Virus record (IMG/VR): IMGVR_UViG_3300029745_000166
Strand: one strand, 5' to 3'
Source: a virus
Taxonomy: Duplodnaviria; Heunggongvirae; Uroviricota; Caudoviricetes
Length of the DNA stretch: 4,084 bases
In this document: piece by piece, positions 766 to 1,780 of the stretch
How the letters are laid out: each line of letters starts with the position of its first letter
Numbering within the stretch: the stretch's first letter is position 1
Notes under the pieces: model-generated
Told to the model about the DNA's origin: nothing
What the model saw: the letters and a program-made list of their open reading frames with translations, nothing else
The model's database searches: none
Translations under genes and position numbers: made by a program

Positions 766-793
766 GTTTTGCTGATGCGCGGTATTGTCGCCG

Positions 794-858
794 TATCCCC
801 GCATTAACAGAGACCGCAGCCCGACAGGGAGACTCCTCTGCGCGAGTGTGCGGGGATA
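794..858. repeat. GC-rich nested inverted repeat: perfect 10-bp arms tatccccgca / tgcggggata around a 45-nt spacer that contains a second inner inverted repeat (cagag / ctctg)
   Basis: Seen in sequence: 794-803 is the exact reverse complement of 849-858; 807-811 cagag pairs with 836-840 ctctg. No ORF of meaningful length overlaps it on the + strand, and no U-tract follows. Confidence 0.45.
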
Positions 859-1115
859 ATCAAAAACGACACACACCGGGGTTTACCGCGTTAACGGAGC
901 GCGGCGTTGTCCCCTCATAGTCGCCTGTCCGGTGCGATGGTGGAAGAAGCCGGATGTTTATCACTATTAATTGATGACACAGAAATGGATTCATTGAATT
1001 TCAGCACGTTTTTGTATTCGTGTTATTGAACATCTGTTTATTTTACTTTTAACATATTGATAATAAAAAGAGCTGTAAATCTTTAGATGAGTCGATTTTG
1101 TCCGGGGAAGTTCAA

Positions 1116-1256
1116 ATGGATTTTATGCTGACGGTTTCTGGAGTGGTTATCCTGTCCATTGCTTATACTGCAGATAAATATGGCTGCCATTTGTTATCAC
1201 GTATTGGCGCTTATTGTTCGTTGATGCTGATTTTCTCGTCGCTTTTTTTTGAGTAA
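1116..1256 (+). CDS. Hypothetical 46-aa hydrophobic peptide (MDFMLTVSGVVILSIAYTADKYGCHLLSRIGAYCSLMLIFSSLFFE) with two hydrophobic segments
   Basis: ATG at 1116 with GGGGA 7 nt upstream; an AT-rich tract precedes it (about 960-1100) with several TTGA-type -35-like hexamers; TAA at 1254-1256. Below the ORF-track cutoff; no homolog recognised. Confidence 0.3.
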   Translation: MDFMLTVSGVVILSIAYTADKYGCHLLSRIGAYCSLMLIFSSLFFE

Positions 1257-1388
1257 GTTATATTAATTATAACAAATAATTTTCTGTGTTATTTTTTCAG
1301 GCTATCCCGTCAGAGGGGAAGCCTGTACTGCCAGGGAGCGAATGGAAAACTGATGTGTCCGGTAACTGCGTGTTCTGTGAACACCATG

Positions 1389-1574
1389 TTACTTAATTAT
1401 GTAATTCATACCCGAACTCTCTGTTGACAGCCTTCTTCTGCAGGCTTCAATAACCCACGCTGAAAAGTTTCCTGAACCTTTCAGATCAAGAGCGATGTTA
1501 ATTTGTTCAATCATCTGGTTTGGAAATCGGATGTTGCGGGTTGTTGTTCTGCGGGTTCTGTTCTTTGATGACAT
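1389..1574 (-). CDS. Small ribbon-helix-helix-like protein, 61 aa; resembles the DUF3950 / YlcI-type small proteins of lambdoid prophages (from memory, unverified)
   Basis: ORF-track translation MSSKNRTRRTTTRNIRFPNQMIEQINIALDLKGSGNFSAWVIEACRRRL... has a basic N-terminus, a short beta-strand-like RNIRFP, then two helices (NQMIEQINIAL, FSAWVIEACRRRL), the pattern of RHH DNA-binding proteins. The ATG at 1574-1572 has TGGGGAA 7-8 nt upstream on the minus strand. Confidence 0.6.
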   Translation of the reverse strand: MSSKNRTRRTTTRNIRFPNQMIEQINIALDLKGSGNFSAWVIEACRRRLSTESSGMNYIIK

Positions 1575-1780
1575 AATGTTTCCCCATATTCAGTGTTGCT
1601 GATTTGTATTATCTGAAGTTGCTTTTACGTTAATTTGACGCAGATCAATTAATACGATACCTGCGTCATAATTGATTATTTCTCGTGGTTTGATGGCGTA
1701 CACACATGTTGTGATAAACCTTATATAGATGATAATAATTATCATTTCGTGGGTCCTTTCCGGCGATCCGACCGGTTACG

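Follow-up and report, generated by a model that had tools for sequence, protein, structure and literature searches.

Conserved anchors and a probably exchangeable cassette between Rz and cos of an Escherichia coli lambdoid prophage

The window, meaning the whole 4,084-nucleotide stretch of DNA that was analyzed, includes the interval between the lysis gene Rz and the cohesive-end site of a lambdoid prophage. The order along the late operon would be Rz/Rz1, an empty left slot (10 bp), a 179-nt block, a right slot, ylcI in antisense, cos and the terminase genes, with features located as follows.

298–765, + strand: Rz (i-spanin), the left anchor (Pfam Phage_lysis PF03245, E = 7e-49; DNA 82% identical to lambda Rz)
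518–703: Rz1, embedded in Rz
766–775: left slot, from the Rz stop to the block, empty here (10 bp)
776–954, + strand: conserved GC-rich non-coding block, a candidate structured RNA (covariance-model hit, 202 bits)
955–1388: right-slot cargo, an AT-rich moron-like insert (GC 0.36)
1036–1070: AT-rich stretch upstream of the 46-aa gene
1104–1110, + strand: Shine–Dalgarno-like GGGGAAG, separated by 5 nt from the start codon of the 46-aa gene (read from the sequence)
1116–1256, + strand: gene for a 46-aa orphan protein (RefSeq WP_000347013.1)
1389–1574, − strand: ylcI/ynfO-family gene (DUF3950, 61 aa), the conserved right anchor (Pfam, NCBIfam and PHROG matches)
1440–1780: lambda-like right-end sequence, running through most of ylcI and on into the cos-proximal DNA (86.8% identical to lambda 48,169–48,502)
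1781–1792, + strand: cosN 12-nt cohesive-end sequence GGGCGGCGACCT (read from the sequence; the lambda right end aligns up to 1780)

The interval 766–1640 is four separate things, namely the conserved block, the variable cargo, ylcI/ynfO and lambda-like AT-rich DNA, and the cosN 12-mer beyond it is identical to the lambda cohesive end. As the first-pass annotation had stated, ORFs of at least 100 codons are absent from the interval; the only one touching it is a 121-codon ORF at 511–876 on the minus strand, antisense to Rz. The same annotation had asked that small genes here be studied, and two such genes are annotated by RefSeq in copies of 100% identity, one for a hypothetical protein of 46 aa (1116–1256, +) and one for a YlcI/YnfO family protein (1389–1574, −), the latter overlooked at first pass. 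No tRNA or tmRNA was found by ARAGORN.

GC content is 0.57–0.60 for Rz and the block (776–954) versus 0.36 for the cargo at 955–1388 and, taken closer to the junction, 0.60 at 776–958 versus 0.29 at 959–1115. Measured with 180-bp arms, the drop at the 958/959 junction is 0.294, a value exceeded at only 9 of 3,724 positions (maximum 0.311, at 953). The compositional switch proposed earlier is therefore real on its left side, at about 955, but the proposed switch back at about 1300 is absent: GC stays at 0.39–0.42 throughout the small ORF, ylcI and the cos-proximal DNA until cosN, so composition alone is no guide to the right-hand boundary. Lambda-like sequence, earlier placed from 1641, begins instead at 1440 and is itself AT-rich; a mosaic junction falls inside the 3′ end of ylcI, at about 1389–1440.

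To survey the two slots, the gaps on both sides of the block were measured in 136 block-bearing loci. Block-to-ylcI gaps fell into classes of 37 bp (empty), ~246, 438, 557, 641 and 898 bp with differing contents; the right slot was empty in 21 loci, with unrelated inserts at the same junction in others. Besides the empty 37-bp site, the alternatives in relatives include a DUF1398 gene, a TonB_C lipoprotein gene and ORF-less DNA. Every cargo class is AT-rich (GC 0.31–0.44), and the 246- and 898-bp classes contain no plausible ORF. An accessory slot between Rz and cos had been postulated, and the right slot is indeed an ordinary moron-type accessory site with alternative cargo in related phages. 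On the other side of the block, the gap to Rz is 10–20 bp in 30 loci and elsewhere reaches ~1,750 bp, the left slot then containing bor (minus strand), Rha, KilA-N/ORF11CD3, ParE/ParD, DUF4406, DUF6979 or a 74-aa protein.

In lambda, 434 and DLP12 it is this left slot that contains bor. The reported absence of bor from the window was confirmed: Bor, lambdap78 and lambdap79 of lambda gave only chance hits to the window by tblastn (E ≥ 1.6), the best Bor match (E = 1.6) spanning 11 residues. The left slot is thus simply empty here, and the AT-rich right-slot cargo is not a replacement for bor.

The cargo at 955–1388 was found in 734 of 5,426 E. coli genomes versus only 2 phage records. At least 80% of the 875-bp interval was present in 715 genomes, versus 733 with at least 80% of the cargo; most cargo copies therefore appear to be placed between the same anchors. 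In O157:H7 prophages the cargo is 97% identical, but there the terminase module is a different one (HNH and another small subunit) and the left slot is filled. Block and cargo do not always co-occur, and the block is not missing from most relatives. In a five-phage alignment the block is nearly invariant and the DNA on either side divergent. The first-pass annotation had named uniform conservation across relatives as the sign of an ancestral interval; the block is widely conserved, whereas the cargo slot varies and includes empty sites.

That annotation had read the whole of 766–1640 as one horizontally acquired moron block replacing bor. The abrupt GC step, the lack of bor and the fact that many E. 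coli genomes carry the entire 875 bp at 100% identity would all suit such an origin, but the parts are distributed unequally, with 398 phage records for the block against 2 for the cargo, the ylcI and cos-proximal part is 87% identical to lambda, and the bor slot is a separate one to the left of the block. On these sequence comparisons the reading is refuted, and we regard it as very improbable. Its patchwork of acquired cargo is retained for 955–1388, which is variable, but not for the ancestral 776–954 or for 1389–1640, which is conserved ylcI and cos-proximal DNA. The Rz–cos interval of this E. coli lambdoid prophage is instead probably a set of conserved anchors with one swappable cassette. 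Homology could be provided by the block on one side and, on the other, by the 5′ two-thirds of ylcI, which are conserved; from the mosaic pattern we infer that co-resident or co-infecting lambdoid phages would swap the DNA between these anchors by homologous recombination.

Morons, in the sense of Juhala and Hendrix, are present in some and absent from other syntenic phages, deviate in composition, have their own promoter and terminator and are expressed from the repressed prophage. The concept is cited in PMC4104026. The cargo is present in some syntenic relatives and cleanly absent from others, and its GC content of 0.36 deviates, though the ylcI–cos DNA to its right is also AT-rich (0.39–0.41). 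The lambda right arm (Rz–bor–lambdap78–lambdap79–cos) holds AT-rich, present-or-absent cargo at the same late-operon position and, like the window, contains both anchors, the block and a ylcI homologue. The lambda cargo consists of Bor and DUF1398, whereas that of the window is a 46-aa protein with two hydrophobic segments; the bor slot is filled in lambda and empty in the window, and no flanking promoter or terminator was found for the window cargo. The K-12 prophage DLP12 (rzpD–borD–ybcV–ybcW–ylcI–nohD) has the same anchor order as the window, with ylcI preceding the Nu1-like nohD. In DLP12 both slots are occupied, by borD on the left and by ybcV and ybcW on the right, whereas the window fills only the right, with an unrelated gene.

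The cargo seems to contain a single genuine gene, whose 46-aa product, MDFMLTVSGVVILSIAYTADKYGCHLLSRIGAYCSLMLIFSSLFFE, has two hydrophobic segments and a GRAVY of 1.11. In a diverged copy from SHP24 (81% DNA identity overall), GGGGAA, the ATG and the length of the gene are kept, and 1036–1070 is 100% identical, making this stretch a possible promoter or regulatory site. Against the SHP24 copy, dN/dS is ~0.28 (12 synonymous and 13 non-synonymous differences over 33 and 102 sites, respectively), the substitutions being conservative and hydrophobic; close variants differ by 7 synonymous versus 1 non-synonymous change. These comparisons indicate that the gene is under purifying selection. Neither the 46-aa protein nor the other small ORFs matched a family in Pfam, NCBIfam, PHROGs or PADLOC, and a homologue search with the 46-aa protein returned only near-identical E. 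coli sequences and none outside E. coli. Defence or anti-defence genes had been suggested for such a site, and no family of this kind was recognized among the small proteins: the 46-aa protein and YlcI gave no hit at E ≤ 1 against PADLOC-DB 2.0.

When the window and the diverged copy from SHP24 were scanned, neither had a sigma-70 match of at least 9/12 on the plus strand near the 46-aa gene or an intrinsic terminator after it, and no promoter or terminator signal around the gene was shared by the two copies. Classic promoter–gene–terminator moron anatomy was consequently not demonstrated. One promoter-like match, TTTACA-17-TATGTT, runs from 1079 to 1051 on the minus strand; in a check for type I toxin–antitoxin organization, this site proved to lie upstream of the 46-aa ORF, directed away from it and with no terminator.

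Could the AT-rich segment be decaying spacer or remnant DNA and the 46-codon ORF a chance ORF propagated by annotation pipelines? Its lack of a family, of homologues outside E. coli and of a recognizable promoter or terminator would fit, as would the few frameshifted variants that exist and the sister cargo classes of 246 and 898 bp without any plausible ORF. The dN/dS of 0.28, the 7:1 ratio among close variants and the retention of ATG, Shine–Dalgarno-like sequence, length and hydrophobic character in the diverged copy argue against it, and we judge a chance ORF to be improbable. Our best guess for the selected gene, by inference, is that its product would be a small protein forming a hairpin in the inner membrane, with a basic loop on the cytoplasmic side, made by late read-through or, in the lysogen, from a weak AT-rich promoter. 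Its target may be the host envelope, where it might exclude other phages or modulate a membrane protein, to name two examples. HK97 gp15 is reportedly a small moron-encoded membrane protein that mediates superinfection exclusion and is located in the tail genes. Both proteins are tiny, hydrophobic and derived from an AT-rich late-operon insert, a likeness by description only, and the 46-aa gene lies between the block and ylcI rather than in the tail genes.

The product of 1389–1574 passes PF13132 (67.5 bits; cut-off 25) and NCBIfam NF041551 (35.2 bits; cut-off 30) and matches phrog_949 (E = 9e-32). In the YlcI/YnfO family the N-terminal 50 aa are nearly invariant and the C-terminal tail is variable; the window product is nearly identical to other members over the former, whereas its tail, STESSGMNYIIK, is specific to the cargo type of the window. 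Lambda itself encodes an unannotated 64-aa homologue. An AF2 model of YlcI (pLDDT 71.8) has an extended N-terminus and helices at 19–32 and 37–59. Foldseek of this model against the PDB returned nothing at E < 6 and the ribbon-helix-helix protein HP0222 at E = 7.9; a sequence search of the PDB gave nothing significant, and PHROGs gave a weak HicB-like match (E = 0.012). A ribbon-helix-helix fold is only suggested by these comparisons.

The most conserved piece of the region is the GC-rich block, which is ancestral and not acquired. Its 398 phage records include lambda (46,868–47,032), 434, Stx1 and Stx2 phages and Salmonella ES18, and it is present in at least 1,888 of 5,426 E. coli genomes. 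The K-12 copy, in DLP12, lies at NC_000913.3 579,009–579,174 (134 bits) in the unannotated borD–ybcV gap. Polarity relative to the late operon is constant, and by their 3′ half the copies sort into discrete types, which suggests recombination. A single genome-contig hit to the search pattern, in a Clostridiales MAG, was dropped as a chance match. RefSeq leaves the block unannotated in every copy listed, save for an overlapping ylcI end.

Some phage records call an 81-aa ORF across the block, which two of them label 'Rz-like spanin', and in the window an ORF at 753–920 matches phrog_6954 (E = 1.4e-14). These are the grounds for regarding the block as a protein-coding gene (PHROG 6954). However, the best frame is open in just 31 of 68 distinct copies, 26 copies having TAG or TAA in place of TGG or TGC. 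Block lengths of 163–182 nt differ by other than multiples of 3, with 1-nt and 10-nt indels, and variability by codon position (0.091, 0.094 and 0.052) lacks a third-position excess. Within the block, the 753–920 ORF lacks a start codon. To the extent that sequence analysis can decide, the coding reading is refuted, and we give it almost no credence.

Covariation among the copies, in an alignment fitted to a covariance model, supports a multi-helix fold on the late-operon strand, with the following helices.

782–788/866–872: H1
794–804/848–858: H2
812–813/837–838: H3
820–822/827–829: H4
878–880/912–914: H5
887–890/900–903: H6
928–933/949–954: H7

In this fold 97–98% of cells pair, versus 36–66% in slid registers, and 9–11 pairs are changed on both sides, versus ~3.5 in shuffles (0 of 500), although shuffle controls overstate the significance because the sequences are related. 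A separate RNAalifold run recovered the same helices. The plus strand is favored (98.2% paired versus 88.8% on the minus strand), with G·U at 9.9% of plus-strand cells versus 13 A·C cells, an asymmetry that fits RNA and not duplex DNA. Compensatory pairs above controls and strand asymmetry were thus both observed, in related sequences whose alignment is partly model-fitted. When the block was folded singly, its stability on either strand did not differ significantly from that of shuffled sequences (z-scores of −0.6 and −0.1). Two further candidates, a leader peptide starting downstream of GGAAG, an SD-like sequence in the loop of H7, and an ACARGGA motif of the CsrA type, were dropped because neither, judged by eye, is conserved across block types.

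Conservation of the block as DNA, either as a recombination linker that promotes exchange or as a protein-binding or hairpin-forming site, offers another explanation. It draws on the position of the block exactly at mosaic junctions on either side, the discrete types of its 3′ half and its unremarkable single-sequence folding energy. H6 and H7, however, keep their pairing with entirely different sequences (CCGCG/CGCGG, CTGTG/CGCAG, CTCAT/ATGGG and CAGC/GCTG; TCCGG/CCGGA, TCCTG/CAGGA and CTCGA/TCGAG), and the asymmetry between G·U and A·C cells and the constant polarity likewise speak against a DNA element. We consider this explanation rather unlikely.

Rfam 15 gave no match within 776–954 when the whole window was searched at E ≤ 1, and lax filters over 740–1400 at E ≤ 10 returned only chance hits of 12–18 bits, versus gathering scores of at least 37. 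The prophage small RNAs of pathogenic E. coli (AgvB, AsxR, Esr41, STnc100 and PasA–D) resemble the block in being non-coding and in occupying conserved lambdoid positions that adjoin moron sites. They lie mostly downstream of Q/pR′ near holin, or within structural genes in the case of PasB, whereas the block follows Rz; they are Hfq-binding RNAs of 50–240 nt, whereas the block is ~179 nt with six or seven helices and no terminator. Those with Rfam models did not match the block, and the window contains none of the Pas probe sequences. In the partial coverage of the prophage sRNA literature (Tree 2014; Pearl Mizrahi 2021; Zhu 2026 preprint), no element was described at the block position, nor was one in that on YlcI/YnfO/DUF3950 and borD/ybcV, where coverage of journals was likewise partial and novelty is unproven.

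Most likely, the block would form a structured part of the late mRNA that acts in cis. In lambda the late operon is transcribed after induction, so transcription of the block is expected at that stage given its sense orientation within it. It may serve mRNA processing or stability, placed as it is in the long untranslated stretch that separates the lysis genes from the packaging genes. More broadly, and tentatively, the block could be an undescribed functional structured RNA common to lambdoid phages with differing packaging modules. Under this one reading it might act in cis, governing processing, stability or expression of the late transcript across the lysis–packaging junction, or in trans, as a separate RNA after its release from that transcript.

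That lambdoid phages have exchangeable accessory genes in the Rz–cos interval is already known, and the cargo described here is one more such cassette. With two slots, a fixed block between them and a junction inside the 3′ end of ylcI mapped, annotators can delimit cargo by homology in a region where GC content is a misleading delimiter. The slot itself is ordinary; the potentially new item of the region is the block, a candidate structured RNA that K-12, lambda and Stx phages share with at least one third of the complete E. coli genomes. If functional, it would be a new element in the late operon of the best-studied phage, unannotated even in lambda.

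The window is part of an E. coli lambdoid prophage, in which the interval between Rz and the cos-flanking DNA (766–1640) is a composite of parts, with conserved anchors and two variable slots. The landmarks are as follows:

298–765: Rz (Pfam Phage_lysis, E = 7e-49)
518–703: Rz1, embedded in Rz
1116–1256, plus strand: hypothetical protein of 46 aa (RefSeq annotation)
1389–1574, minus strand: YlcI/YnfO family protein (RefSeq annotation)
1781–1792: lambda cohesive-end 12-mer GGGCGGCGACCT, read from the sequence
1976–2485: Nu1-like small terminase gene
Also in the window: start of terminase A

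Many E. coli chromosomes carry the interval with 100% identity, and 715 of 5,426 complete E. coli genomes have 80% or more of it. The first-pass annotation had described an accessory site without bor or long ORFs, and both observations were confirmed. All ORFs lying within 766–1640 are shorter than 100 codons, and searches with lambda Bor, lambdap78 and lambdap79 found no homologue anywhere in the window (best E = 1.6). A minus-strand ORF of 121 codons (511–876), antisense to Rz and entering the GC-rich segment, merely reaches the left edge; it is the sole ORF of more than 100 codons touching the interval and is most likely spurious. The reported compositional break is sharp, with GC falling from 0.60 (776–958) to 0.29 (959–1115). 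At 958|959 GC drops by 0.294 (180-bp arms), a value exceeded at only 9 of 3,724 positions, all nearby (maximum at 953). The proposed switch back on the right was not found, as GC remains 0.39–0.42 across 1116–1784, and lambda-like sequence begins at 1440 instead of 1641 (window 1440–1780 is 86.8% identical to the last 334 bases of lambda). Nor is this DNA bare spacer, since two RefSeq genes lie within it.

Upstream of Rz, a strong 14-bp hairpin at 90–122 (AAAACCCCG...CGGGGTTTT) is terminator-like on both strands; a sub-threshold minus-strand Rfam match to the rimP leader (29 bits; gathering score 47) probably reflects nothing more than this hairpin. A small ORF just before Rz (123–296, RefSeq start 164) has a hydrophobic C-terminal half and matches phrog_6632 (E = 1e-29), a family of unknown function. 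Between cosN and the Nu1-like gene, CCGGACATG occurs in three exact copies (1830–1838, minus; 1890–1898, plus; 1920–1928, plus) and again with one mismatch (1925–1933, minus), the last two forming a hairpin at 1915–1938. With up to one mismatch, five copies were observed versus 1.0 expected, and the repeats could be cosB-like binding sites for the terminase small subunit.

The window was aligned with four phages that match it in different ways. About 180 bp of the GC-rich segment (hereafter the block) was nearly invariant in all five sequences. Its left neighbor was the Rz stop in two of them, a Rha gene in one and a different ORF in the remaining two; the right side also differed, and the AT-rich middle was common to the window and PPyecE_EH1910 only. 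Searched alone, the block matched 398 phage records at 76–97% identity, including lambda-like phages, 434, Stx1 and Stx2 phages and Salmonella ES18, whereas AT-rich 961–1388 matched just two. Among complete E. coli genomes, the block was found in at least 1,888 (megablast), with up to nine copies per genome, and the AT-rich cargo in 734, usually as a single copy. The block was unannotated among the E. coli matches listed, except for two overlapped by the end of ylcI.

The invariant core of the block was then used as a survey pattern, giving at least 120 IMG/VR loci and seven genome contigs, one of them a chance match. Over the 136 block occurrences listed, gaps were measured to the nearest upstream Rz and the nearest downstream ylcI homologue. 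The left gap is 10–20 bp in 30 loci listed, the window's type, and 80 to about 1,750 bp in the others. Its contents include bor (minus strand, 97–102 aa), a 74-aa protein of unknown function, DUF4406, DUF6979, Rha, KilA-N/ORF11CD3 regulators and a ParE/ParD pair. In lambda, 434 and K-12 DLP12, bor sits left of the block; its absence here therefore reflects an empty left slot (766–775). One surveyed locus (L020; IMG/VR UViG 3300045988_154548) carries two block copies, 5057–5234 and 6007–6184, about 950 bp apart, which bracket cargo including a DUF4406 gene. The right gap falls into discrete length classes.

Right-gap classes (block to ylcI) among the loci listed
37 bp: 21 loci, empty
About 246 bp: 3 loci, no ORF
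About 438 bp: 11 loci, 46-aa gene (the window's type)
About 557 bp: 17 loci, DUF1398/YbcV gene, minus strand
About 641 bp: 13 loci, lipoprotein with a TonB_C domain
898 bp: 1 locus, no convincing ORF

The AT-rich DNA of the window thus fills a second, right-hand slot, and its cargo is one of several alternatives. Every right-slot cargo class has a GC of 0.31–0.44, and the TonB_C cassette is a clean insertion placed before the 37-bp empty-site sequence. In lambda and DLP12, DUF1398 (lambdap78/ybcV) and lambdap79/ybcW lie right of the block. The window's cargo also occurs, at 97% identity, in O157:H7 prophages whose left slot is occupied and whose packaging module is of the HNH type, direct evidence that it moves between different phage backbones. 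No ylcI was detected in the available downstream sequence in 70 of the 136 occurrences, 10 of which had less than 600 bp of sequence left. Where ORFs were readable in these, other small-terminase-like genes usually followed 220–320 bp later, so the block is not bound to one packaging type. The synteny comparison suggested by the first-pass annotation revealed alternative cargo in discrete classes at the same site. Its patchwork of moron cargo holds for the swappable right slot; the GC-rich block is conserved and is not cargo, and the delimitation was partly wrong. As submitted, the finding is an ordinary lambdoid moron site with some delimitation errors.

The 46-aa ORF behaves as a real gene on comparative grounds. 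Searches of Pfam, NCBIfam, PHROGs and PADLOC returned nothing for its product, whose relatives among 5.8 billion proteins were near-identical E. coli sequences only. A diverged copy in strain SHP24 (81% DNA identity) retains the ATG and the GGGGAA Shine–Dalgarno motif; its length is preserved (45 aa), and the substitutions are for the most part conservative hydrophobic ones. Nei–Gojobori counts against this copy were 12 synonymous changes over 32.7 sites and 13 non-synonymous over 102.3 sites (dS 0.51, dN 0.14, ratio 0.28); close variants showed seven synonymous versus one non-synonymous change. The product is very hydrophobic (GRAVY 1.11), and the loop between its two hydrophobic segments holds K21, H25 and R29, which by the positive-inside rule would place the loop in the cytoplasm and make the protein a membrane hairpin. 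No plus-strand consensus promoter or intrinsic terminator was found flanking the gene in the window or the SHP24 copy, and the AT-rich 35 nt upstream (1036–1070) are perfectly conserved between the two. Expression would occur either in the lysogen or solely through late read-through.

The right anchor is ylcI. Its 61-aa product scores above the curated cut-offs of both DUF3950 and NF041551 and also hits phrog_949, and a 64-aa homologue lies unannotated in lambda. The first ~50 residues of the family are almost invariant and the C-terminal tail differs between phages, which, with lambda homology starting at 1440, places the mosaic junction inside the 3′ end of ylcI. The tail (1389–1440, alignment A7) varies with the neighboring cargo. 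With no cargo in the right slot, the reading frame continues into the block's antisense strand and ends in tails such as ...EGTTPRSVNAVNPGVYRF (record P0083). In an AlphaFold model (pLDDT 71.8, core 85–90), an extended N-terminal stretch is accompanied by two helices, as in a ribbon-helix-helix monomer. Foldseek with this model returned nothing significant, and similarity to HicB-like antitoxins in PHROG was weak (E = 0.012); the predicted fold is a lead.

In several phage records an ORF is annotated across the block, mostly as a hypothetical protein and twice as an Rz-like spanin, and ORF 753–920 of the window matches phrog_6954, labeled 'Rz-like spanin'. A coding role was rejected. The best frame is stop-free in only 31 of 68 distinct copies; in 26 of the 68, TAG or TAA stands in place of the TGG or TGC of other copies. 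The copies vary in length (163–182 nt), with indels of 1 and 10 nt, and variability by codon position (0.091, 0.094 and 0.052) is the reverse of the coding pattern.

The 5′ half of the block is nearly invariant, while the 3′ half exists in several sequence types with the same hairpins (H6: CCGCG/CGCGG, CTGTG/CGCAG, CTCAT/ATGGG and CAGC/GCTG; H7: TCCGG/CCGGA, TCCTG/CAGGA and CTCGA/TCGAG). RNAalifold on 25 block sequences of <95% identity gave 35 pairs in seven helices, with 97.1% of cells pairing versus 38–60% when 3′ partners were slid and nine pairs changing on both sides versus 3.6 ± 1.2 in shuffles (0/500). After curation, the alignment was used to build a covariance model, which matched the window once (776–954, 179 nt, 202 bits), lambda at 46,868–47,032 (130 bits) and DLP12 at NC_000913.3 579,009–579,174 (134 bits). 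K-12 Qin retains only a 16.5-bit remnant between ydfO and gnsB (locus L143, 2968–3063, minus strand); its Rz-to-ydfO interval holds cspI, ynfQ, ynfR, ynfN and gnsB. With 69 distinct copies aligned by the model, the paired share of cells is 98.2% versus 36–66% slid and eleven pairs change on both sides versus 3.4 ± 1.2 (0/500), values from related sequences, a structure partly derived from them and a block alignment (A6) fitted to the model. An independent alifold run recovered H1, H2, H4, H5, H6 and H7.

A rival reading is that the block acts as a DNA-level linker, and the window block, folded by itself, had no stability advantage over shuffled sequence (z = −0.6 and −0.1). Pairing by strand, 98.2% (plus) versus 88.8% (minus), points to RNA in the sense of the late operon; the plus strand pairs better because 9.9% of its cells are G·U while only 13 cells are A·C. 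The block could also be a trans-acting RNA. Published prophage sRNAs of EHEC and EPEC lie downstream of pR′ near the holin or within structural genes, and none of their probe sequences occurs in the window. The block matched no Rfam 15 family, and literature on ylcI/ynfO, borD/ybcV and Rz1/terminase, with most subscription journals outside coverage, held no description of it; the block is probably novel.

We infer that homologous recombination within two conserved stretches, the block and part of ylcI, would exchange the cargo, and that the 46-aa product may be a small inner-membrane protein benefiting lysogen or phage. The block itself would belong to the late mRNA as a structured segment, plausibly one that affects processing or stability, within the untranslated stretch from Rz to terminase, which can be 0.5–2 kb. 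The conserved block is an unexpected by-product of this analysis: it is present in lambda and K-12, the public records examined either leave it without annotation or show an ORF there, and it lends itself readily to testing.
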